Shown here piece by piece: positions 1 to 12,291 of a stretch of DNA of 64,000 nucleotides. The DNA lies in assembly GCA_963780265.1 (NCBI GenBank), contig CAWABQ010000018.1, forward strand, positions 2,558 to 66,557, given 5' to 3'. The first letter of the stretch is position 1, and every line of letters starts with the position of its first letter. The notes below the pieces were generated by a model that saw nothing but the letters and a program-made list of their open reading frames with translations, made no database searches and was not told the origin of the DNA. The DNA comes from Candidatus Bathyarchaeota archaeon (GTDB lineage: Archaea; Thermoproteota; Bathyarchaeia; 40CM-2-53-6). Both the position numbers and the translations under genes were made by a program.

Positions 1-47
1 GGAACAATCACCTACGACATTAACCCGACGCCGTCGAACAAACCATC

Positions 48-218
48 ATGAACGCCGTAGACACCCTCCGATCTACTTACGATATTCACAACTTGCGGAA
101 GATGCTTGATGTCGACGCATTGCCCCTCGGGGCTTCGCTTCGAATCCCTGTCCTTACTCGAGAGGCCAGGGTTATCATGGATTTCACTTTTTGGACCCAC
201 CGGGAGCTGGCAACGTAG
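48..218 (+). CDS. Small phage protein (56 aa), hypothetical
   Basis: ATG-initiated ORF (MNAVDTLRSTYDIHNL...) read manually. Its TAG stop abuts the ATG of the next gene. Below the ORF-track size cut-off. Confidence 0.4.
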   Translation: MNAVDTLRSTYDIHNLRKMLDVDALPLGASLRIPVLTREARVIMDFTFWTHRELAT

Positions 219-440
219 ATGCATGAACTTCCCAAGGCGTTGAACGCCGACTGGGCGCCGTTGACCTGGCATTTCTATCAGGCCCAGGACGGAAAGCCGA
301 CGGTGTACATCAACGACGGATTCGACTTGCTCTCCTTGGCCAGACATATGATTGAATTTGATGGGACCGTGCGGCCAAGCGTACTCTGCACAACATGCGG
401 CTTCCACGATGACGTCAAGCTTCTAGGATGGGTTCCATAG
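219..440 (+). CDS. Phage protein, hypothetical (head-tail joining region by position)
   Basis: 73-aa ORF, translationally coupled on both sides (tagATG). Confidence 0.45.
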   Translation: MHELPKALNADWAPLTWHFYQAQDGKPTVYINDGFDLLSLARHMIEFDGTVRPSVLCTTCGFHDDVKLLGWVP

Positions 441-797
441 ATGCCTGGTTTCAGTATTCAGATCATATCGGACACGGTGACGGCTAAACTCATTGCGGCC
501 GCGCAGCTGATGGCGCAGGGTATCCAGGACGGGTTGGAGGCAGCTGGCGCGGATATGGAAGCCACCGCCAAGCAGATAGTCCCGGTGAGAACCGGTTTCC
601 TGCGAAGCACCATCTACCATCAAGTTGACCCCGTGGCCCTCAGCCTAGAAGTCGGCGCCGACGCTGACTACGCGTTCTTCGTGGAGATGGGAACCAGGCG
701 GATGGCTGCGGAACCGTACATTCGGCCGGCCTTCGACGCCCACCAAGACCAACTCCTGCAAGCCTTGACCCTCGGCATCATGTCGGCCTTCCAGTAG
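441..797 (+). CDS. HK97 gp10-family tail completion / head-tail connector protein
   Basis: 118 aa. The ...AKQIVPVRTGFLRSTI...ADYAFFVEMGTRRMAAEPYIRPA pattern is typical of the HK97 gp10 family. Confidence 0.8.
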   Translation: MPGFSIQIISDTVTAKLIAAAQLMAQGIQDGLEAAGADMEATAKQIVPVRTGFLRSTIYHQVDPVALSLEVGADADYAFFVEMGTRRMAAEPYIRPAFDAHQDQLLQALTLGIMSAFQ

Positions 798-845
798 TTT
801 TCCTTGTCACAGTCTCATTGAGACCTGACGGAGCGTGAAAAATAT

Positions 846-1283
846 TTGCCAAAATACGATGGTGATGAGGTTGAAGTCCGCATAGGAATAAGCGCGGCCG
901 CCGCCACAGCCGCAACGCCCGTAACTAACCTGGAGAGCATCACATACAAAGCTGACCAAAGCGCCACAGAAGTGCCCGTAGGCATCGGCTCTCGAGCGAC
1001 AGAAGTCCATGAGAAACTCGTCAAGTACACCGGGGCAATTACCCGCTGGAACGATGAAGTCGCGACTGTATCTGGAGGCACGGGATCCCTAGCAACGGAC
1101 GTAGGCGCTTTCACAACAGCAGCGTTGACACCGCTCTACGTGGAAATCAAGAACAAGACGTCAGCTACGAAGATCCAGTTGGTCGGTTGCATAGGCCTCT
1201 ACTCAGAGGACCTCAAGAGCCCTGACGGGTTCCTGATGGAAACCTGGGACTTCAAGTTCTCCTCGATAACCAAGAGCCCATAG
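846..1283 (+). CDS. Putative major tail protein
   Basis: 145 aa with a TTG start. Sits between the gp10-like gene and the tail chaperone. Assigned by synteny only. Confidence 0.5.
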   Translation: MPKYDGDEVEVRIGISAAAATAATPVTNLESITYKADQSATEVPVGIGSRATEVHEKLVKYTGAITRWNDEVATVSGGTGSLATDVGAFTTAALTPLYVEIKNKTSATKIQLVGCIGLYSEDLKSPDGFLMETWDFKFSSITKSP

Positions 1284-1320
1284 GGCTTTTGTTAGCCCTT
1301 AAGATTGGAGAGATGGAGAT

Positions 1321-1635
1321 ATGGAGAAAAGTACCTTAGCGAAAGCAGACGCCAAGCCCCCCAACACTATTTCTTCCGGCGTAACTCAGCCTAGCGGTAG
1401 CGCCGACCTGAAATTCCTGGTCAGCTTCGGTGTTGTGATCAGCTGCCGGCTTGGCGACGTGGAACACATACGCAGCCTGATCCAGGGAGTGGGCGGTCGC
1501 ATCGTGTTCCAAACCGTGAGTAACGGTCCCCTCTTTCTGTTTCGTGCAGGTCAAGTGGAGAGGGCCCTGGCTGGTGATGTTTCCGCGCTTGCGGAAATTC
1601 ACAATAAGAAAACAAGAAGGAGTGAGAAGTTTTGA
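1321..1635 (+). CDS. Hypothetical phage protein
   Basis: 104-aa ORF co-oriented with the module. An antisense ORF of similar length exists, so coding is uncertain. Confidence 0.3.
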   Translation: MEKSTLAKADAKPPNTISSGVTQPSGSADLKFLVSFGVVISCRLGDVEHIRSLIQGVGGRIVFQTVSNGPLFLFRAGQVERALAGDVSALAEIHNKKTRRSEKF

Positions 1636-2003
1636 GTGAGAAAAGGCAAGCAATCCTGGAAGCTCGAGAACAGAACAGAGAACTAGCGAAACAAATCGAA
1701 CAGGGAACCAGCTACCATAAACCCGTCGAAATCAGAGGCAAAGACAACGAACTGCACACGTTCGAAGTCTTTCCTATGTCCGACGCAGACCTGGCAGAAC
1801 TCTTGGAGACTACGAACGTTGACCTGAAGGATATTGGCAACAGGGACAAGATGTTGACGAACGTAAAATTCCTTATGAAAGGTGCCGCCATCGTTACCGG
1901 CGTCCCCGACATCGCCAAGGCATTGATGCCCATGGAATCCCTGAAGTTGATTTCGAAAGGCTTCGAGCTCAGCGGCCTGACTGGGGGCCCAAAACCCGCC
2001 TAG
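1632..2003 (+). CDS. Tail assembly chaperone (lambda G-like)
   Basis: 123 aa and acidic, lying between the major tail and tape measure genes. A slippery heptamer sits 7 nt before its stop. Confidence 0.6.
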   Translation: MSEKRQAILEAREQNRELAKQIEQGTSYHKPVEIRGKDNELHTFEVFPMSDADLAELLETTNVDLKDIGNRDKMLTNVKFLMKGAAIVTGVPDIAKALMPMESLKLISKGFELSGLTGGPKPA

Positions 2004-2155
2004 GTGCATTCGCCCAGGGGTCCGTCTACTCGGCCCCCCTCGAAGTCCTGGTATCAGGGTTCGGTTATCGGCTAACGGACCGTATGGACGAGCTCACCCC
2101 ACTGCAGCGAAACTGGCTGCTACAAATTTTCAAGAAAGAACATTCGAGGAAGTGA
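1632..2155 (+). CDS. Predicted -1 frameshift fusion product (lambda GT-like)
   Basis: After the slip the reading is ...GGPK/TRLGAFAQGSVYSAPLEVLVSGFGYRLTDRMDELTPLQRNWLLQIFKKEHSRK, adding about 54 aa. Confidence 0.5.
1988..1994 (+). promoter_or_regulatory. Candidate -1 programmed ribosomal frameshift site C_CCA_AAA
   Basis: Matches X_XXY_YYZ in the zero frame of the chaperone gene. The -1 frame stays open from here to TGA at 2153-2155. Confidence 0.6.
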
Positions 2156-2183
2156 CCTGAATTGAGTACGAATAGAGATACTT

Positions 2184-2285
2184 GTGACCCAATTCGGCTA
2201 CAAACTCACCAATCGGGTAGAAGACCTCACTCCCTTGCTAAGGGCGTGGTTTCTGGAGATATTTGCCAAGCAACGCCGTAGTTAG
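2184..2285 (+). CDS. Small ORF paralogous to the frameshift extension
   Basis: GTG-initiated, 33 aa: VTQFGYKLTNRVEDLTPLLRAWFLEIFAKQRRS. About 16 of 30 residues match the extension peptide at 2060-2152. Confidence 0.35.
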   Translation: MTQFGYKLTNRVEDLTPLLRAWFLEIFAKQRRS

Positions 2286-2459
2286 TGCTTGCGAAGCAGA
2301 CGAGACTCGGACCGATAATCTCGCCTTATTCTGTAGAATTTCAATCGCTCGCTTCGCGTCGTTGTACTAATTCAAAGCTCTCTAGCTATCTCTGGGAACT
2401 CCTTCTGATGCTCATTTCACTTTTTGGGCACTGGAATCCTTGCGATTGTTGAATGCGCT

Positions 2460-3430
2460 CTAAAAATGCGTTTGGTCTTCGACTATCCAAGAATTCTGCC
2501 AGTTGATAGTATCACTTGCAGGAAGGGGAACCCAATTCGCGTGTAAACAATCAGTCGAGCCGCAATTAGCCGTCCAATAGCCGTAAGGAACTGTGTTAAA
2601 GGGATAAACCGGTTTGTACGGATCAAGGATTTCACCTGTCTTTCCACCCGCAGTACCTAGCTCTAAATGGACAACGATGCTTCTGGTATATCCTCTGTGT
2701 CCTGCTAATGCTACTGGTTGATATCTGGATACACTATCACCTATTCTCACAAGAACTTCTGAACTGTGAGCGAGGCCAATATCATATCCTAGAGTTGAAA
2801 TAATAACCCAGTTATCGGGTGTATCTGGGTAAGCTCTTGTTACAATTCCGGGCGCAAGGACGGAATAATATCACCTTCTTCCGCCAGAAAGTGGGTGCCG
2901 GAATCATTATCAACACTCTCGTCAGTGGCCCCGTTCCAGGCCAAAGTGGAGCCTTTACGAGGATCCCTGTCATAATAACCACCATGGTCAAGATCAATTC
3001 CTTTCTTCGGATAACTTAGAAATCCTTGCAGCAATCCAATGCTCATCTTAGGATTGTTTTCACCAACAGCAATATAGTAACCATGCATAATTCGTCTGAC
3101 TTCGTTAACGCTCTGGCACATGTAAGGGAATTCATCAGTAACTGGATACACAGAATAATTCCCTTTTGGAAGATCGACTTTGAAATCTCCAGACGAATCA
3201 GTAGTCGCTGTTGCAACAACCTTAGTTACGACAATAGCATCAGTAATTATGACCTGCGCGTTTTGAACTGGTGGCTCGCTGTCAGTATCATCCTGTATCC
3301 CGTTCCCTGCGGTTCCATACTGGCTAGTACCCCTGTCGAAAAAGAGCCTTCCTTCCTGCGTGTAAGTCTGCGGGGAAGTGGAGTAGGTTGCGTTTGAGGA
3401 CTCGGTAATCTCCTGGGTGAGGCTGGTCAT
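2460..3430 (-). pseudogene. Carboxypeptidase-regulatory-like plus M23 metallopeptidase, apparent frameshift near 2858-2864
   Basis: The upstream frame ends ...SGTHFLAEEGDIIPSLRPEL*. The next frame continues VLAPGIVTRAYPD...IGDSVSRYQPVALAGHRGYTRSIVVHLELG, an M23 HxH-type core. A 1-nt deletion would explain the break. Confidence 0.6.
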
Positions 3431-3705
3431 CTCCTGCCCCGGGTTGTATTCTGCGGATAAAGCGCATTCCTGATTGGCCCGCCATAAAGAAAATCAGCCA
3501 ATAACCCAGCAACTCCAACGGTTGCAATCAACCCCCCGATAACGAATTTTCTCCTTGTTGCTTGGAAATGAGTTAGCCCATTATTCTCTCCGCTGTAAAT
3601 CATTTCGACATTTTTCTTGATTGCGCTGTTCATTGAGTAAGGAGTGGTCAGCGGTTCGGATGCTTTTATTGCCAATCGGTTTATGAGCTCTCTTATGTCC
3701 TTCAT
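3427..3705 (-). CDS. Small membrane-anchored protein
   Basis: 92 aa with one TM segment (FVIGGLIATVGVAGLLADFL). ATGA overlap with the downstream peptidase ORF. Confidence 0.5.
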   Translation of the reverse strand: MKDIRELINRLAIKASEPLTTPYSMNSAIKKNVEMIYSGENNGLTHFQATRRKFVIGGLIATVGVAGLLADFLYGGPIRNALYPQNTTRGRR

Positions 3706-3947
3706 ACACTCACAGCTTGTTTTCAGCGTGATCTAGTCTGACCTGGGTCCCCACGCCAGAAGGAAACATCTCCAAGAAAGCAATAGTCCGAGTTGCATTT
3801 ACTCTTGTTGCTTTGCAAGAAGTTATGAAAACTGCGAAAGCCGTGAGAACTATCTTCTTCGTTTCTTATCCAAAGATTCTCACGGGTTCTGTACTCAACT
3901 CCTAATGGAATGACTGAGTTGAACTTCAAGTTTCTTGAAGTCCTGCT

Positions 3948-4822
3948 TCAATCACGGCTCTCTTCTCTTGTATAAGAATCCACGGGGCGATTTGATTGAG
4001 CGCCTCCACAACACGGTCCGCACAAAAGGCCGGATTTGTATTGATTCTCATGTTCCCACAGGCGAAGAATATGCCACTTGTTCGCCTTGAGGATCATGTC
4101 GTGTAGGACATCTCTAGAGCGCACATCTGGGCGATTATGCCAGTAGTCACCATCACAAAACACAGCCAGTTTCTTTTCAGGGAAGGCGATATCTGCCTGA
4201 CACCGATTCAGAACCGGATAATGCTTTGCAAAGACCAATCCCCGGTTTGTCAACTCAAACTGCATCGATCGCTCAATTCCCGTGTCCCTGGTCGGGAAGA
4301 TTTGACGCAGCCTCGCTTTCCGAATTTTCTCGCGTTTTCCTGCGAAACTTTGCGTCCCCGAAGTTTCTCGCGTGTTGACTGCGAAACATGACAGCCCCTC
4401 CTTGCTTCATGCAAAATATTCAGTCGCCGTTCGCGCTCTATCGGTGAGAGGCCCTTCCAGTATTCCTTGTGTTTCCGTGCAGCGTTCGCACGAATTGAAA
4501 GTAAGCGGCTGGTGTTCGCTACTCCAAGACAGTGTAGCGAACAATACTTCGGGCTTCGGGTTCCTGGGCGCCTTCGCCTGCTATCCGAAACGTGGAACGG
4601 TTTACCACATCGCATACATGCAAGAGTGACACCTGATTTGTTCCAAGGTATGCGCCCCCGTTTCTTCAAAGACGCAGAGGGGTATCTTTTCCCTGTATGA
4701 ATTGCAACCATATGTTGACGGTATTTAGAATCTCGCCAAACTTCTCTTTGTACTTCGGATCGCATGGCGCGGAAACTCTCGGGCATCTTCCGGTCTTTGT
4801 TCCATGGAACCTGATTGGACAT
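3948..4822 (-). pseudogene. Free-standing homing-endonuclease-like gene: NUMOD3-type repeats plus a Vsr/DUF559-like PD-(D/E)XK nuclease, split by a frameshift near 4310-4324
   Basis: The N-terminal ORF has VPWNKDRK, IPWNKSG and HVSQSTREKLRGRKVSQENARKFGK motifs. The C-terminal ORF has ADIAFPEKKLAVFCDGDYWH...WHILRLWEHE. The nuclease frame stays open upstream through the junction. Confidence 0.6.
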
Positions 4823-4965
4823 TGTTAGGGGAGTTACGATCGCTGGTTTACCTAAGAAAGCGATAGGTGGGTGAAAGTAACGGATTGTCTACGAATATCG
4901 GATCCATCGTATAGTAGCAGCAGCTACGCGAATTTGCGATCCAAGCTGTAGATGAAGCATCGGGT

Positions 4966-7222
4966 GTGATGGGGAAGATTTCTGCTGCCATGGGTTTAAT
5001 CGGTTCGGAGCTTGAGACACTCGGCCCAGGTTTCTCGCAACTTGGCCAGGTGATCCAGGGCTTTGCTGTCGGTGGCCCGGCCGGTGCGGCGATCGTAGGC
5101 CTCGGTGAAATCGCCAAAGGCATACAGGACAGTGTTGCAGCTGCGGCTGGCCTGCAGACAGTGTGGACTGACCTGCAGTCAACCATGCATTTGACCGGCG
5201 CCGCATGGGACGCGATGAAAACCCAGATTGACGCTGTCGTTGAATCCCTTCGAACAACCACAACATTCAGCGACACGCAACTGATTGGAGCCTTTCAGCG
5301 ATTATCAACTTATGGCATGACAGCCGCCCAGTCCATGGATGCGTTGAGGGCTGCAACTGAGCTGCGGCAGCGAAGCATATTGACCTTGAAACTGCAGCGA
5401 CCGCCCTCGGCAAAGCGTTTCAAGGAAATGATATGCTGCTTGTCAGGTACGGTGTTGACGTTGCTACCGTAGCCAAGCAAGTATCGTTGGGTACTGAAGC
5501 CATCAAAGAAATGGGCGTTAATCTTGAGAGCGCTGGGACAACGCAGCTTACAGCCTTCTCTGCTGCAGTGACAGCGGCAGGCTTGAGTCTTACAGATGCA
5601 AACGGGAAGTTGCTTACTCACGCAGCAGTTCTGAAAGAGATAACGGCCGCGTGGAAGGCTGGCTCTATTGACGCTGATCAACTGTCAACGATTGTAGGCG
5701 CCCTCGGCATCAACTTCCAAGGCAGCAAAGCCCTGGCTATGGATTACGCGGCTGTGCTTGGCCAGGTGAACACGCAATATGGAGGCGCCGCCCAAGCCCA
5801 GGCGACCACCTACGCCGGCCTCCAGGAGCGCCTAGCGAATGCGTTCCAGGTGGTGAGTGAGAAAATTGGCACCATGCTTCTCCCAGCCCTGACTTCTATC
5901 CTGGAAGCGCTCCTTCCAGTCATTGATGGTTTCAGCAGGGGCGTCGACGCGATACAATCATGGGTTGCAGCTGTAGGGAAAATCCCTGCTGTGCAAGGCG
6001 CGGTTAGTGCCTTCCAGGGCGTTTGGGACGGCCTCACAAAATCCTTCGACAATGCCTGGAACTCGGTGAAAGGAGACTTCATGCCGGCACTGCAGGACCT
6101 GCAGAACGCTTTCAACGAACTCGCTACCGCCCTGCAGCCCGTATGGGATGCTCTCAACGAACTATGGCATGCGGTCACTGGCAGCACTGGCGACTTCAAC
6201 ATATTCCAAGCGCTTCTCGAAGGCGTCGTGTTCGTAATCAAAGCCCTCGCAGAAGGCATCCGCCTAGTCATCCCCATTGTCAGTTTGTTCGCGCAAGGTT
6301 TCAAACTCCTCGCCGACATTATTGGGCCACCCATCACGTGGATCATGAACACGCTAGGCGCGTCTTCAAATGGTTGACCGATGGATTCCAGGCGTTCTAC
6401 GATTGGCTTGTCGGCCACTCCCTCTGGCAAGACCTGTGGGCTAAGGTTTGGGATGTGGTAGACAGCGCTATCATCGGCCTGGTCAGCAGACTTACAGGCG
6501 GACTGTTCGATTGGTTGAAAAGCAGTTTCACCGACACCGTTAGCGCCATTCAAGGCAGTTGGAACAGCATCGTTAGCGCCGTTACGAACTCACTCGATAC
6601 AATTTCCACCAAGATTCGAGGACAGTTCCCTGAGCTGTCCAAAATCATCACCGGCGGAACAGAGATACTGAAAGGCAACTGGATGCAGGGAATAAGTGAC
6701 ATTGCAGCCGCGCTTCCAGGAGCCTGGGCGGAAATCACTTCAGCAATCTCGAAAGCCCTAAGCGACCTAAACACGGTGCTTGCAAATGCGTGGACTCAGA
6801 TGCAAAGCGCCGCTCAGTCAGCTTTCAATGAGCTGCAAGGCATCGTGAACAACGCTCTCTCAGGTATAGCTGCAGCCGCAAACGCTCTCTGGAACAGTTT
6901 AACGCATCACTCCATTTGGCCGGACATGATGGCTGAACTTGTAGCTCAAACAAAGGCCGGCTTGGACGCAGTTCAAGGTGAATTTCAGGATGCCTTCGCA
7001 TCTCCTACCGGGATTATTCAGACCGTGCAGGCAGGCGGTCAAGCAACAGCTGCCGCGAGTAGCCCAGCCGCAGCGTCTGCAACCCCTGGAAGCCTGGATA
7101 CAAGCCAGGCGATCACCTTACCCATCAACGTGTACCTGGACGGCCAGCAGATCCAAGCCTTCCTCGAGAAGCGCATCGTGGCAACCATGGTGAGAGATGC
7201 GAGTAGGAGTAAGCGAGCATAG
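4966..7222 (+). pseudogene. Tail tape measure protein, read in three frames (shifts near 5362 and 6360)
   Basis: ORFs 4966-5472, 5361-6377 and about 6360-7222 join into a continuous helical Ala/Gly-rich protein (...ALRAATEL/AAAAKHIDLETAATALGKAFQGN... and ...PPITWIMNTLGA/FKWLTDGFQAFYDWL...). Confidence 0.75.
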
Positions 7223-9934
7223 ATGCCGGGCAACCTAGCCAAAACATTATCCGGCCTGATCGTCGCGGAGACCTTCGAATCATACCCGAACGGCTGGACC
7301 TTCAGCCAATCCGGCCAAGTCTCAGGGCATGGCTGCTTGGCGACTGCCGGCGTCGGCTCACCAAGAACCGGCCATGCCGGCAACAACATGTGGCTTGAAA
7401 TCCTTGGCGCCATCGGCGACACTCCCGATGAAGGTTGGGTGAAAGACCAATGGGCACAACTCGTCAAGACCCTAAACCTCGGTTCAGGCGCAGGACGAGT
7501 TGCCAAGGTCTTTCGCGGCTGCGGTTTCAGTGAACCCGTCTACGACGACTTCCTAGGCTCAGCGTACAACGGAGGCTTATGGACGCTTGACAATGGCAGT
7601 GCACCAACAGTCGCAAGCAGCATCGCGACCTTCGCTGTTGGCAGCACCGCACATACCAGGCTGGTGTCAACGACTAGCTACACGAGAGCCTCCAGCAACA
7701 ACCAAGGCTCTATGACGTGGGCTTTCCGAATCCGCAACACCGGAGGCGCTACGGCTAGGCTTTTCGCCGTTTGGAAAGGAAACGACAGCGACGGAATATT
7801 TCTACAGTTCACGTCCATGGCAGTTCAGCTATGCACGAAAAGTGGAGGAAGTCTAGTCCTTGGCGCCGGCATCGCCGTGGATTTAACAGTATTCCACACA
7901 ATCACAGTCACGTGGACCGCGGTCCCTGGTGGTGGCTTCAATGTTGAGATGTTTATCGACGGCGCATCGGCCGACATACATGCAACGGACATTGGCACCG
8001 GTTCAGACCCCATGGCGCTTGGCGCGCATTACAGCAGCACCGACTATGCTGGTTACGATGTGGACTGGTTGGGTGAAAGCGTCCAACCAGGTTGCGCAAA
8101 GGTGTCCTTCATCGTTGGCACGATGACATGGTTCAATGAGAACGCGGGACTTGACGGCCGCGACCCCCACAGCCTCAAAGATAACTCGTACTACCCCATC
8201 CCCGTCGCTTCGATGGCAACGTGGCAAGCGATCACGGACACTGGGAATCAGACCGCCACGTTCAAAGTTCTAAATGCAAACGTCAGGGGTGTTGGGTGGC
8301 CGTATGATGCGTTTCGTAGAAACATGTACTTCGACATTGACGATTTCCTGGTGATGGCAGGCCTCCTTCTCACGGTCAACGCGCTGTCGGGTGGCCAGAA
8401 GGTTGAACTGTACGATAGCGGTGGATCCCTGCGTCAAACTGCCACATGTCCCGTAACGAACACTCCGATTACTTTTGATTTGAGCGGCCTGATACCTTCA
8501 GCGTTCGGCTTCTATGGTTACATGAAAGTGTACGACACAGATGGCATCACCCTTCTCTACACGACACCGACCATGTACAGCTTCGGTGGTGATGGATGGA
8601 CATGGGTTGGTGCAGCGTCGCAAATAGTTCTCGCCGCGGATAATCCGAAAATCTATCGCACCGGCGCCGGCTTGAGCCCTGGGACCGCTACGGTCACCGC
8701 TACGATGACGAATGTGGCGACAGGCCTCCCCGTTTCCGGCGAGACTTTGGCATGGTCATGCTTCCTTGGTTCAGTGAGTCCCGCATCGAGCGTCACGGAT
8801 GCAAACGGCCATGCGTCGACCGTCTTCACTCCCTCGGCAGCTGCTGGCCTGGGAGGTGTTCGATGCGACTTTGCCGGCGACAGTAATTATTCCCCAGGCT
8901 TCGGGATCCAACTCATTGACGTCTACTACGCCCTGCCAGCAGGGGATGCAACGAAGGACTTTCAAGTCTTCGTGCAGGGACAGGAAATGCCGTACAACAG
9001 CGGCAACTACAAGCTTTCTTCAGACTTCAAACCTCAAACCTTCACCGTGACCGGGCCCCTCGGCCCATTGACGGGATTCTGGTGGGCTGTTGAAATCTAC
9101 CGGCTAGGCGTGAAGGAGTTCCAGGGTCGAATCCTGACCCGGAGGCGAGTAAGCGGTGCCAGCGCCCAACTCACCATCACCGGCGTCGACGAAACTATCA
9201 TGCTGCAGAGGCGTGTGGCTAACCGGAATTACCTGGACGACCCGAAATACATCATCCAGGACCTTCTCACGCGCTACCCGACCGGAATTGTGGCCGGCAC
9301 GATTTCATTATTCGCTAATACGATCAGCCTCCCCATAACCTACGACAACGTGTACGATGCGCTGGTTCAAATCGCTAATGCGACCGGTTGGATCATCCGA
9401 CGGAACATAACGAACACTCTTGATTTCGCCCCGTCCTTTGGGTCCCTGAAGAGTATCAGCATCACCGTGGGCGGCAGCAGCGGTGTCACCGCGGACCATA
9501 CTGAAGACGCGACGCAACTAGATACGAAGGTTGTTGTAATAGGCAACCCCTCAACCCTGGTCTCCATCTTCGAGGACACGGCCAGCGAGTTGATCTACGG
9601 CTACATTGAGGAGGTCTTCATCGTGAAGACCATCACCGCCCAGGGCACCCTGGACCTGAACGCCCAAACCACCCTAGCCAACCGAAAAGTACCCAGGGAC
9701 ACAATCATCCTGGACTGGATAGACAGCCTGGCCACAGGATCCTACGCGCCTGGGGATTCTCTCACCGTCACCGACGCTGACGCCGGTCTCTCAGGAACCT
9801 ACACGGTCTATGGCATCACACGGGACCTCGCGGACGCATACCTCGCAAAACTCGAGCTCACCACCCGCCTGGTAACAATCGCGGATGCCCTGCAGAGCAT
9901 TCGGTCCGTCGTGAAAGACCTGGGGGTCCTCTAA
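7223..9934 (+). CDS. Large tail tip / baseplate (anti-receptor-like) protein with LamG-like and Ig-like (Big_1-type) domains
   Basis: 903-aa intact ORF starting directly after the tape measure stop (tagATG). An Ig-like segment reads ATVTATMTNVATGLPVSGETLAWS...TDANGHASTVFTP. The C-terminal part resembles siphovirus minor structural/tail proteins. Confidence 0.65.
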   Translation: MPGNLAKTLSGLIVAETFESYPNGWTFSQSGQVSGHGCLATAGVGSPRTGHAGNNMWLEILGAIGDTPDEGWVKDQWAQLVKTLNLGSGAGRVAKVFRGCGFSEPVYDDFLGSAYNGGLWTLDNGSAPTVASSIATFAVGSTAHTRLVSTTSYTRASSNNQGSMTWAFRIRNTGGATARLFAVWKGNDSDGIFLQFTSMAVQLCTKSGGSLVLGAGIAVDLTVFHTITVTWTAVPGGGFNVEMFIDGASADIHATDIGTGSDPMALGAHYSSTDYAGYDVDWLGESVQPGCAKVSFIVGTMTWFNENAGLDGRDPHSLKDNSYYPIPVASMATWQAITDTGNQTATFKVLNANVRGVGWPYDAFRRNMYFDIDDFLVMAGLLLTVNALSGGQKVELYDSGGSLRQTATCPVTNTPITFDLSGLIPSAFGFYGYMKVYDTDGITLLYTTPTMYSFGGDGWTWVGAASQIVLAADNPKIYRTGAGLSPGTATVTATMTNVATGLPVSGETLAWSCFLGSVSPASSVTDANGHASTVFTPSAAAGLGGVRCDFAGDSNYSPGFGIQLIDVYYALPAGDATKDFQVFVQGQEMPYNSGNYKLSSDFKPQTFTVTGPLGPLTGFWWAVEIYRLGVKEFQGRILTRRRVSGASAQLTITGVDETIMLQRRVANRNYLDDPKYIIQDLLTRYPTGIVAGTISLFANTISLPITYDNVYDALVQIANATGWIIRRNITNTLDFAPSFGSLKSISITVGGSSGVTADHTEDATQLDTKVVVIGNPSTLVSIFEDTASELIYGYIEEVFIVKTITAQGTLDLNAQTTLANRKVPRDTIILDWIDSLATGSYAPGDSLTVTDADAGLSGTYTVYGITRDLADAYLAKLELTTRLVTIADALQSIRSVVKDLGVL

Positions 9935-10010
9935 TGCAAATCCAAGGCATCACGCTTCCACAAGTACAGTTCATTCGCTGAGTTTTCTTTCCAACTTAGC
10001 ACCTTCACGA

Positions 10011-10628
10011 TTGCAAAGGGTGGTGAATGAAAAATTGGTAACAATACTAGGTGCAGGTACGGTAGTTGGTCAACGTGCCCGTTGGGATGGCACAAGTTGG
10101 GTTCCAGTCACACAAGGTCTAGACCTAATCGCAGAATCCGTTGACCCAACCGCTGCAACAAGCCTCACACTTTCAGGGCTGAACGGTGATGCAGACATAC
10201 TCTACGAAGTGATGGGGCGAATCCTAAAGGATGCTTCGACCGGCCATGTTACTTTCCAACTTAACGCAGATGCGACAGCGGGCAATCACGCTTGGGCAAA
10301 CGTCATCAATTACTCAGGGACAATTACAGGCGGAGCCTCGGTGTCAGATACACAAATTTACTATGAGGACGGTACAAGCAACCAGCGACTAGTGGCTAGC
10401 GACCATTTAGATTTCTTTTTCCGATTGTTCGCAAAATCGGGCGTACAAAGACGACTTCTCGGTAGAGCAACTGCTAGAATCTCTAACGGCAGCCTACTTC
10501 TCGGATATGACTTCATAGGAGAATGGAAAAATACAAGCACCAATTTGACTTCAATCAAAATCATATCCGGCGCAGGCAACATCGGCGGCTTAGGCAGCTT
10601 CATTCGAGCCTACAGAATCCTCGACTGA
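10011..10628 (+). CDS. Hypothetical virion (fibre-like) protein
   Basis: 205-aa ORF co-oriented with the tail module. Confidence 0.45.
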   Translation: MQRVVNEKLVTILGAGTVVGQRARWDGTSWVPVTQGLDLIAESVDPTAATSLTLSGLNGDADILYEVMGRILKDASTGHVTFQLNADATAGNHAWANVINYSGTITGGASVSDTQIYYEDGTSNQRLVASDHLDFFFRLFAKSGVQRRLLGRATARISNGSLLLGYDFIGEWKNTSTNLTSIKIISGAGNIGGLGSFIRAYRILD

Positions 10629-10637
10629 TGATTCAGA

Positions 10638-11230
10638 ATGACGACCTACTTCGACAATGCATACTTTGACCCTGCTTACTTCACATCAACCGTCGGCATC
10701 TCCGTTCAAGGTATACCACTTCCACCGTGGAACTCATCCGTCGCATAGCCAGCCTCCTACTTGGCTTGCAACCCATACCAAGCCCAAGCGCCCAGTCCGT
10801 AACCTACTTCGGCAATATGTATTTTGACCCTGCCTACTTCGCAGCAGTCGCAGCCGTTCCTCATTCCATATCTCGGTACACCCGGCAGTTGGCCACGAAT
10901 GGTGATGCCTGGGAAATTGGAGGTCTCACCGACCACGTAACCCTGGAGAAGCTCTTCGCGCTCCCAGACAACGGTACCGTCTGGGTTACGGATTCTGACC
11001 GCGGCTGCTTCCATGCCATCCTCGAAGTTGAAGCAGCCTGGACCACGGAGGATGTCGTGGAGGTCGCGGCATTTGTTCCTTACTTCGGCAATGTGTATTT
11101 TGCCGCTACCTACTTCGCAACTGTCGGTATCGCTGCAAGTGATTCTGGGAGGAGACAGTACATGGTTCGGTTGAGTGTGACTGAGAATGTGTTTGACCCT
11201 TCAGTGTTCGACCCGTACGCTTACGAATAG
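10638..11230 (+). CDS. YF-repeat protein: ORFs 10638-10748 and 10727-11230, possibly one gene
   Basis: Three copies of the motif YF-x-N-x-YF-x-x-x-YF (TYFDNAYFDPAYF, TYFGNMYFDPAYF, PYFGNVYFAATYF). The first copy lies in a 36-aa ORF overlapping the second ORF by 22 nt in another frame. Confidence 0.45.
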
Positions 11231-11989
11231 GTGAAAGCTATGGTTCTCTTTGGTTCCACAACTCTACCGCACGTTCTGTCGATGCAGCGGCAGCAGCCGC
11301 GCATCAAGCAGGAAGTCCCGTTACCAGGTAGAAGTTTCGCTTACCGGAAAGACCGCGGCGGCATCGGCGCACAGTTCGTTCTCAAAGGCGCCATTCGTCC
11401 CAGCAGCCAGGCAACCAGGGACCTGATCGCAGGCCTGGCCGACGGGGCCGCTAGGATTCTGGACCTGCAGGAGGCCACGTTGACGCTCCTGGAGAGCTGC
11501 TTACGATATCAAACCGGGCCCACGTGGACAGATTACACGGCAGAATCCCAAAGCACCATCGGAACACCTTTCACTCTCCTGGGTGCCACGACGGACTACG
11601 GGTACTTTGGCCACCGGGAGAAATGCAATAACCTCATCTTCGCGTTCGCAGCGGTAGGTACCTATGTGATCCTCCTTTGGGAGTACAGCAAGGGATCCGG
11701 CGCTTGGGGGACTCTCACAGTGACGGATGGGACCAGTGGTCTGCACCAGAACGGTGCCGTCACCTTCGCCCCACCCAGCGACTGGAAGCAGGACACGGTC
11801 AACGGTATTGCGAACAAGTTTTGGATTCGAGTCTCGGCGGCCAGCGTTACAACGGCGGCAACCATCTACAACATTCAACTGAACAACGTCTTCCTCTGCA
11901 TCATGCTGAACCCTAGCTTCGACGAAACCGCTGACGACTACAACGAAATCCCTTATACACTCACACTGCTCCAACAGGAGAATCCGTGA
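11231..11989 (+). CDS. Hypothetical virion protein
   Basis: 252-aa ORF with a GTG start abutting the upstream stop. Confidence 0.5.
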   Translation: MKAMVLFGSTTLPHVLSMQRQQPRIKQEVPLPGRSFAYRKDRGGIGAQFVLKGAIRPSSQATRDLIAGLADGAARILDLQEATLTLLESCLRYQTGPTWTDYTAESQSTIGTPFTLLGATTDYGYFGHREKCNNLIFAFAAVGTYVILLWEYSKGSGAWGTLTVTDGTSGLHQNGAVTFAPPSDWKQDTVNGIANKFWIRVSAASVTTAATIYNIQLNNVFLCIMLNPSFDETADDYNEIPYTLTLLQQENP

Positions 11990-12291
11990 GTCGAATGCCT
12001 AAGATGGTGTGGGGACAAAGCCTCGAAGACGGTATTGTTCCTATCGAACTTGCAGATGACGACAAGGTTGCGGAGTGCGATTGTGTTGTCAGCAAAACCA
12101 AGAAGGGCTTGAGGATAACCAAACTCTGCGTCAATGCCACGCTTGCCTATTACACAACTCTTGCCATGTCTCTGAGTAAGAAATCGACGTCCGACTTCAC
12201 TGAGAAAGAAACAAAGGAATACCGAGAACAGTGGGACTGGATCAACGAGCGTGGGCGGCAAGTTATAGTTGGGTATTGTGAAGAAGCCTAG
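11986..12291 (+). CDS. Hypothetical phage protein
   Basis: 101 aa with a 4-nt overlap on the upstream gene. Confidence 0.45.
   Translation: MSRMPKMVWGQSLEDGIVPIELADDDKVAECDCVVSKTKKGLRITKLCVNATLAYYTTLAMSLSKKSTSDFTEKETKEYREQWDWINERGRQVIVGYCEEA

Follow-up and report, generated by a model that had tools for sequence, protein, structure and literature searches.

A probable composite cassette with a homing-endonuclease-type nuclease and an M23/LytM-fold gene at the chaperone/tape measure junction of a Bathyarchaeia provirus

The insertion and its junctions

The DNA analyzed here, referred to below as the window, is a stretch of 64,000 nucleotides (G000:C18:2558-66557) from the metagenome-assembled genome (MAG) of a Candidatus Bathyarchaeota archaeon, an assembly of 2.08 Mb in 48 contigs that is 75% complete. 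Positions 1-12000 of the window form the tail module of a siphovirus-like provirus, which includes genes for a HK97-gp10-like protein, a putative major tail protein, the tail assembly chaperone G and its extension T, a tape measure protein (TMP), and a 903-aa distal tail protein. Archaeal host genes, such as those encoding an HMPTM-type radical SAM enzyme, a geranylgeranyl reductase, and TBP, are found farther along the window. An earlier inspection of the letters (the sequence-only reading) had pointed to an opposite-strand block that separates the chaperone and TMP genes, which are normally adjacent, while all other provirus genes run on the plus strand. Both observations were confirmed, as the junction is empty in four relatives (L002, L003, L004, and L010) and every long open reading frame (ORF) of the viral module at 441-11989 outside the block is on the plus strand. 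The block contains two genes (Table 1), one encoding a nuclease and the other a protein of the M23/LytM fold.

Table 1. Features at the chaperone/TMP junction, in window coordinates.
Feature	Position	Strand	Basis or remark
Tail assembly chaperone G and T extension	G 1632-2003, T to 2155	+	ORFs; L010/L004 T aligns to 1751-2152
Left copy of TMP leader start, TTGAGTACGAATA	2162-2174	+	Last recipient-type sequence; divergence after
T-prime, 33-codon diverged copy of the C-terminal part of T (FGYKLTNRVEDLTPLLRAWFLEIFAKQRRS)	2184-2285	+	Inside insert; ORF 2166-2285
Spacer, T-prime to 3' end of M23 gene	2286-2459	.	2394-2459 conserved with 3' flank of M23 homologues
Exported M23/LytM-fold protein, ~415 aa	2460-3705	-	20 intact homologues; Pfam M23; profile and Foldseek
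Spacer, nuclease stop to M23 start, 220 bp	3706-3925	.	68-codon ORF 3929-3723
Free-standing nuclease, ~298 aa	3926-4822	-	Pfam; 105 homologues; profile vs. 1cw0/3r3p; PHROG
Two tandem 39-nt (13-codon) units, GCHVSQSTREKLR / GRKVSQE(K)REKIR	4320-4397	-	Repeat spacings 38 and 39
Right copy of TMP leader, TTGTCTACGAATATCGGATCC (MSTNIGSIV)	4885-4965	+	L010/L004 TMP aligns from 4885
TMP, right neighbor of the insert	4966-7222 (leader 4885, main start 4966)	+	

The junction was compared by blastn of C18:1-20000 against the IMG/VR contigs L002-L005 and two proviruses, L010 and L011, which reside in the same-genus genomes G044 and G042 (G042:C4), respectively, both "Candidatus Bathyarchaeia archaeon" MAGs. 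L002, L003, L004, and L010 are collinear with the window to position 2166 and resume at 4951 (4939 in L010), with 28-40 bp in between. In these empty relatives, the T stop is followed 6-8 nt later by the TTG start of TMP, in the sequence "...GGAAGTGAACCTGAATTGAGCGTGAACATCGGCAGC...". Because these empty sites are near-exact, window 2175-4884 (~2.71 kb) is an insertion between chaperone and TMP; the alignment with block-free proviruses that the sequence-only reading had proposed thus fixed the ends of the block. The comparison of GC content and codon usage that it had also proposed set the block apart from its surroundings. The GC content is 0.472 in the insert, compared to 0.542 in the left flank and 0.550 in the right flank, and the GC content at third codon positions (GC3) is 0.34-0.46 in the M23 gene and 0.48-0.56 in the nuclease gene, compared to 0.63-0.66 in the virion genes.

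The start of the TMP leader is present at both ends of the insert, where 2162-2174 and 4885-4897 form an imperfect direct repeat (14 nt, 86%). The meaning of this 13/14-nt repeat comes from its position and not from statistics. A vestigial T-stop/Shine-Dalgarno-like sequence, GGTGGGTGA, lies upstream of the right leader copy. On the left side, residues 104-137 of the L010 T protein match window 2172-2273 with 62% identity (E = 1.7e-11), and this T-prime sequence is read as a fragment of the T gene of a donor virus. The small ORFs at 2156-2285 matched no Pfam family, and the search for terminal inverted repeats or transposon-like ends of the block returned short chance-level matches only. The spacer between the two genes is probably the promoter region of the M23 gene; its 68-codon ORF had no Pfam match and no homologues outside the locus.

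Several features of the TMP leader were also observed. The original TMP start is kept at the left junction, with a Shine-Dalgarno-like GGAAGTGA and a TTG at 2162, so that translation could run on into the insert through a 39-codon ORF (MSTNRDTCDPIRLQ..., 2156-2281, plus strand), which overlaps, in a different frame, with the T-prime ORF. The 20-codon leader (MS.NIGSIV..AI.AVDEASGV) is in frame with TMP in L002-L005 and L010, and 21-24 extra nt with in-frame stops interrupt it in the window, in L011 (9380-9520, reverse complement), and in a more distant viral contig, L029 (7880-8060, reverse complement). In the window, TAG TAG occurs in frame at 4912-4917 with 21 extra nt, and TMP appears to restart at GTGATGGG. 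The interruption might make the leader an upstream ORF of its own, or it might shield the site from the nuclease.

Chaperone G is 73-78% identical in four viral contigs, and a -1 slippery heptamer (C_CCA_AAA) is located near the end of G at 1988-1994, with the -1 frame open to 2155. The window TMP is readable only in three frames (4885-5424, 5364-6362, and 6365-7216, i.e., two frame changes), across which the intact TMPs of L004 and L010 (771-772 aa) align, and it has a weak PhageMin_Tail match; for the flanking virion proteins, little was found in Pfam and PHROG. The contig end (C18:1-2300 and window 1-30) holds pieces of head-tail connector genes whose order or orientation differs from that in L010; C18 777-1014, for instance, aligns to L010 5973-5710 in reverse. 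In addition, ~1.1 kb of L010 is absent at window position 27. Head and packaging genes were not seen before the end of contig C18. The provirus may be truncated, or this contig end may be misassembled.

The reading frames of the block are broken at four positions, all of which are single-base indels. The M23 gene is missing a G in a G-run at ~3437-3440 and a T in a T-run at ~2856-2857, and the nuclease gene is missing an A in an A-run at ~4335-4338 and has an extra A at ~4045-4046. A 38-nt duplication in the nuclease gene was considered and rejected, as the repeat finder identified an in-frame 39-nt repeat unit that is missing one A; the downstream repeat unit has 38 nt, which results in an apparent frameshift. 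When ORFs of 200 aa or more, taken from a 400-kb portion of the complete same-genus genome G046, were aligned to the MAG, 63 adjacent frame changes were found in 83,302 aligned residues, affecting ~1/5 of the genes, compared to 6 in 59,656 residues in the reverse control. Contigs with such changes include C13, C42, C16, C37, and C3. The MAG is therefore indel-prone, with at least ~1 frameshift per 4 kb of coding DNA. The four frame breaks are most likely assembly errors, and both genes may be intact in the real genome. Given the genome-wide indel rate, the breaks of the block are not evidence of pseudogenization, and their reading as signs of a dead provirus was rejected following this comparison. 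The earlier description of a nuclease fused through a frameshift is correct in that the frame is broken, but two corrections are needed rather than one fusion point, and the breaks most likely are artefacts of assembly. Pseudogene calls anywhere in this MAG (TMP, cca, RNase Z, and others) need read-level confirmation.

The nuclease and its recurrence upstream of the tape measure gene

The nuclease gene is transcribed divergently from TMP. Its frame-corrected product aligns over the full length with intact proteins of 260-273 aa at 50-57% identity, which are the closest of 105 homologues. The C-terminal 120 residues passed three Pfam thresholds, namely those of MTES_1575 (PF18741; 46.2-46.4 bits vs. 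38.2), Vsr (PF03852; 31.7-33.6 bits vs. 27), and DUF559 (PF04480; 22.1-22.6 bits vs. 20.6). A profile of 16 family members matched Escherichia coli Vsr (1cw0, E = 9e-6) and the catalytic domain of I-Bth0305I (3r3p, "mobile intron protein"; E = 1.8e-5, 88/105 residues). The Vsr/DUF559-like nature of the nuclease and its likeness to I-Bth0305I, both of which had been proposed from the letters, were thus upheld by profile searches. PHROG matches included "endonuclease" (8.7e-13) and phrog_3339 "homing endonuclease" (3.3e-6). The alignment to 1cw0 places "qaDiaf" opposite "rPDFVV" and "YwH" opposite "FWH". Residues D211, D224, and H229 are invariant in the 16 family members and are kept in the window copy, in which ADIAF...FCDGDYWH is intact in the Vsr/PD-(D/E)xK domain; we take D211 and H229 to be the equivalents of Vsr Asp51 and His69. 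The N-terminus carries PWNK motifs, a CxxC...YCSxxC zinc ribbon, and two tandem 13-residue NUMOD3-like units of the pattern G-x-x-V-S-Q-x-x-R-E-K-h-R, and the homologues have a single 13-residue unit (...TRERIRKARLRQIFP).

The same placement was found in other viruses. L029, a JGI metagenome contig, is a syntenic distant relative whose counterparts of the gp10-like, major tail, G, T, TMP, and 903-aa proteins share 30-52% identity with those of the window, with the same G/T slippery arrangement. Its nuclease, which has a 60% identical nuclease domain and a helix-turn-helix (HTH)-type N-terminus, is encoded on the opposite strand, precisely in the interval that separates the T stop from the TMP leader. 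In the more distant virus L030, the opposite strand likewise carries a nuclease homologue, flanked by a 17-nt repeat of the leader start, immediately upstream of the gene for a 1102-aa TMP homologue. The nuclease is optional, being absent from L002-L005, L010, and L011 and present upstream of TMP on the opposite strand in the window, L029, and L030. Such an optional gene that recurs at one junction with swapped DNA-binding modules would correspond to the pattern of free-standing homing endonucleases, and this is the main support for the homing idea.

L029 also harbors a LAGLIDADG_1 protein (9231-10133, plus strand; 30.3 bits vs. 23.1) with several HTH motifs. Its gene lies between G and the counterpart of window ORF 1321-1635, again on the opposite strand, which gives this tail module two putative homing endonucleases.

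Vsr-fold homing endonucleases are known in phages, including the intron-encoded VSR-superfamily nucleases of Bastillevirinae (PMC11878797). The window nuclease resembles I-Bth0305I and other Vsr-fold phage enzymes in its Vsr-like PD-(D/E)xK fold, its carriage by a virus, its presence or absence at a fixed site, and its modular N-terminal DNA-binding parts. In contrast to these, it is free-standing instead of intron-encoded, belongs to a virus of an archaeal host, and has the Vsr-type motif aDi...FCDGDYWH, whereas I-Bth0305I has ...IEVNGVYW. T4-like phages carry free-standing homing endonucleases (Seg and Mob, of the GIY-YIG or HNH type with NUMOD modules) as optional intergenic genes. The window nuclease is similar to these in being an optional gene between conserved genes, in combining DNA-binding repeats with a nuclease, and in the co-transfer of neighboring DNA, which here would be the T fragment and the M23 gene. 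On the other hand, its fold is Vsr-like, its match to Pfam NUMOD3 is below detection, and its homing is putative.

The nuclease also shares features with the Vsr repair endonuclease, as the Pfam Vsr score is above the cutoff and the Asp51/His69 equivalents are conserved. However, it has an extra N-terminus of ~165 aa (zinc ribbon and repeats), and His64 is replaced by Asp. It is located among viral structural genes and is not accompanied by an adjacent cytosine-5 methyltransferase gene; the block as a whole yielded no methyltransferase domain, and the neighbors of the nuclease gene are the M23 gene and TMP.

The M23/LytM-fold gene

The sequence-only reading had described an operon of a membrane protein and an M23 peptidase. 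This operon proved to be one gene: when the three minus-strand ORFs (3705-3427, 3430-2840, and 2870-2460, stop to stop) were joined, the product aligned end to end with 20 intact proteins of 360-440 aa (48-69% identity, 100% coverage), all 20 of which carry a precomputed PF01551. A separate membrane protein gene was rejected, as ORF 3705-3427 is the N-terminus of the M23 gene according to the intact homologues. The protein consists of a conserved N-terminal segment, a twin-arginine (Tat) motif (TRRKFV) with a hydrophobic helix (ATRRKFVIGGLIATVGVAGLL), a prealbumin-like beta-sandwich of the CarboxypepD_reg/SdrD_B-like type, the M23 domain, and a conserved C-terminal tail (LDPYKPVYP...NW.NYWIVEDQTH). 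Neither a peptidoglycan-binding domain (Pfam) nor a PADLOC match was found for this protein.

The separate ORFs had no Pfam M23 match, whereas the frame-joined protein reached 30.3-32.5 bits for PF01551 against a cutoff of 28.7. The AlphaFold2 model of P0001, the closest intact homologue (69% identical), has a mean pLDDT of 61, with 80-90 in the core. A Foldseek search with this model retrieved 54 PDB chains at E <= 0.001, of which the listed ones are M23/LytM proteins (probability 1.00, target TM-score <=0.74), including both active enzymes (EnpA, LytM, lysostaphin, and ShyA) and inactive LytM factors (EnvC, DipM, and Csd2). The canonical metal-site motifs are missing. Instead of the HxxxD zinc motif, the family has (D/N)-S/A/P-G-T-H-F (aligned to "HNGTDF" of ShyA), with Asp or Asn at the position of the His and an invariant His at the position of the Asp. 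Instead of HxH, it has (V/I/L)-(V/I/L)-H-(L/F)-(Q/E/G), with the second His only (HMMER alignment to "HLHYE" of ShyA). The His of the YxH motif is nearly invariant, and one of the two catalytic His is gone. A swapped arrangement could still provide two of the three usual zinc ligands. The earlier assignment as an M23 metallopeptidase therefore holds for PF01551 and the LytM fold but not for the HxxxD and HxH motifs; the protein is a member of the LytM fold and is not a catalytically canonical M23 peptidase.

Compared to M23/LytM peptidases and degenerate LytM factors, the window family shares PF01551, the Foldseek fold match, the central YxH His, and the last His. It differs from them in the swapped His and Asp, the replacement of the first HxH His by V/I/L, the Tat-type signal or anchor, and the prealbumin-like domain. 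Bathyarchaeia are not known to make murein. The M23-like protein would most likely be exported by the Tat route, as a membrane-anchored or secreted protein, and act outside the membrane on an envelope substrate of the host or of neighboring cells. Because one catalytic His is lost, it may instead be a non-catalytic LytM-type binding module. Candidate roles thus include envelope remodeling for exit or entry of the virus or a plasmid, attack on bacterial neighbors, and non-catalytic LytM-type binding. Archaeal M23 peptidoglycan hydrolases of Halogranum ("Woldo") kill bacteria, contain two PG_binding_1 domains, and were acquired from bacteria, with no Bathyarchaeia case reported (PMC12352652). 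The window family is similar in being an M23-domain protein with a patchy distribution in archaea that lack murein; unlike the Halogranum proteins, it has no PG_binding_1 domain, has altered active-site motifs, and occurs on mobile elements of Bathyarchaeia.

The longer contigs with M23 homologues also encode a family-B DNA polymerase, ParB-methyltransferase fusions, a DUF87 ATPase, an integrase, a LAGLIDADG protein, and HTH regulators, and from this gene content the family looks to be carried on other mobile elements of these archaea. DNA homology of the window to L013-L018 spans 2394/2427-3583/3644, i.e., the gene and ~65 bp downstream (blastn). An M23 match was found in only 5/59 genomes of the taxonomic family of the host. 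No M23 relatives were found in IMG/VR viral contigs, and the gene is therefore not usual in catalogued viruses. The host genome has one copy each of the M23 and nuclease genes, in addition to a distant Vsr-like match on C36.

A second, shorter M23 paralogue (SdrD_B and M23, ~30% identity) is usually found a few kb from the M23 homologue (L013 6307-7320, L014 14693-15778, L015 12158-13288, and L017 11872-12489), and a ParB-N6/N4 methyltransferase fusion occurs in L014, L015, L017, and L018. The M23 paralogue and the ParB-methyltransferase form a recurring module of an uncharacterized mobile element.

Origin and significance of the cassette

Taken together, window 2175-4884 is probably a horizontally acquired composite cassette, in which a homing-endonuclease-type nuclease and a hitch-hiking M23 cargo gene would have entered the chaperone/TMP junction of a Bathyarchaeia provirus. 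The nuclease would cut nuclease-free relatives in the conserved T-stop/TMP-leader sequence, and repair from a nuclease-bearing genome would copy the nuclease together with adjoining DNA, here the M23 gene, into the cut site. The incoming DNA would stem from another virus of the group with the donor order T'-(M23)-nuclease-TMP'. The right crossover would have been homologous, within TMP, and the left end would have been joined illegitimately just after the fourth codon of the TMP leader of the recipient. The expected product is T, a 13-nt leader stub, a ~100-nt donor T' fragment, the cargo, and a donor-type leader. Endonuclease-driven insertion, as suggested by the sequence-only reading, is accordingly plausible with regard to the homologues at the same site in L029 and L030. 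Nuclease-free inserts occupy this site as well, and the M23 homologues elsewhere are not linked to the nuclease.

A number of observations weigh against this interpretation. The nuclease placement is shared by three viruses only (the window, L029, and L030). The 50 more distant IMG/VR relatives of the nuclease are in unrelated viruses, none of which (0/50) has the chaperone or TMP genes of the window, and at the top six IMG/VR nuclease loci checked the nuclease is mostly on the same strand as its neighbors. The repeat that flanks the insert is statistically weak (local alignment score 19, reached in 33/500 shuffles). The NUMOD3-repeat protein of the sequence-only reading did not hold up, as Pfam NUMOD3 (PF07460) gave no match at E <= 10 on the corrected window nuclease, which has the two NUMOD3-like repeats and the zinc ribbon instead. 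Approximately 40 more distant homologues carry a precomputed PF07460, and the L029 copy scores 12 bits against 20.4; "NUMOD3-repeat" would thus denote a resemblance and not a demonstrated membership. The block has ~1.8 frame breaks per kb compared to ~0.25 per kb genome-wide, and with a local density above the genome average some real decay of the block is possible. A Vsr-like nuclease was found beside the M23 homologue at 0/11 loci (L013-L019 and L021-L024), and a fixed two-gene M23-nuclease mobile unit was rejected on this basis. Since the M23 family is patchy and has no nuclease linkage elsewhere, the M23 gene is an independent, patchily distributed cargo gene. Finally, L011 has a 1.9-kb insert without a nuclease at the same junction (9426-11337), and L005 has ~400 bp with an 85-aa ORF there, also without a nuclease. 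Insertion here therefore does not depend on a nuclease, and the chaperone/TMP junction is a permissive insertion hotspot.

These nuclease-free inserts lead to another explanation, in which the junction is a passive hotspot for accessory genes (morons) that enter by illegitimate or short-homology recombination, and in which the nuclease is itself cargo with another role, such as attack on the DNA of competing viruses, defense or anti-defense, or Vsr-type repair. A 26-nt direct repeat of the T-stop/TMP-start junction is found on both sides of the L011 insert. The insert contains a GNAT acetyltransferase gene that is broken into two ORFs (9851-10365), an upstream ORF of 42 aa, and another ORF of 71 aa, and these may be toxin-antitoxin-like. 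The ~5 kb of extra genes between G and TMP in L030 are also consistent with a passive hotspot, as are the weak PADLOC matches of the nuclease, the only ones obtained (PDC-S37, 3.7e-8; Vsr nicking endonuclease model, 3e-4). Accessory-gene hotspots in phage tail modules are familiar, and the insert resembles morons as a compositionally distinct, oppositely transcribed unit between structural genes at a site with varied cargo (L011 and L005). It is unlike them in including a candidate mobility nuclease that recurs at the site. The position of the nuclease directly upstream of TMP on the opposite strand in three viruses of decreasing relatedness argues against passive acquisition, and so does the combination of a shared nuclease domain with different N-terminal DNA-binding modules (zinc ribbon and NUMOD-like units in the window vs. 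HTH in L029), as in modular homing endonucleases. The repair role in particular is at odds with the lack of a Dcm-type methyltransferase gene beside the nuclease. A passive hotspot is therefore the unlikelier account of the block, yet it keeps appreciable weight.

The presence of the nuclease at the site in L029 and L030 might also suggest that the virus group had the block ancestrally and that the relatives without it lost it by deletion. This is highly improbable, as the junction is compact and conserved in four relatives, with the T stop overlapping the ribosome-binding region of TMP, the GC and GC3 values of the block are far from those of the viral flanks, and the M23 gene has no relatives in IMG/VR viral contigs. 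In addition, a second diverged T fragment and a duplicated TMP start could not have been created by deletion. The indel-prone MAG and the scrambled fragments in the first 2.3 kb of the contig raise the question of an assembly chimera, in which the block was misassembled into the provirus. A chimera is hardly credible, since both junctions hold virus-specific sequence (the TMP leader copies and T-prime) and an independent contig, L029, has the same nuclease/TMP arrangement.

Tailed viruses of Bathyarchaeia have been described only recently, with no mention of homing endonucleases, M23 proteins, or peptidases (PMC10541130). As an instance of viral mosaicism the cassette is ordinary, with known kinds of genes in a new and little-studied host group, and the M23 family with its swapped His/Asp motif is the least expected element. 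The locus is a clean empty-site/filled-site example for a Vsr-fold homing-type nuclease in archaeal viruses, with the T-stop/TMP-leader sequence as the candidate target of the nuclease. The exported M23/LytM-fold family, borne by mobile elements, is a test case for M23 domains outside of peptidoglycan biology. A more far-reaching proposal, which is doubtful at present, is that the family comprises mobile-element-specific archaeal LytM-fold enzymes with a rewired metal site and a non-murein target, and that the nuclease is a true homing endonuclease of archaeal viruses that spreads such cargo through cuts at the chaperone/TMP junction. If this were true, the M23 family could be the envelope-opening (lysis or entry) enzymes of Bathyarchaeia viruses and plasmids, or antibacterial weapons.

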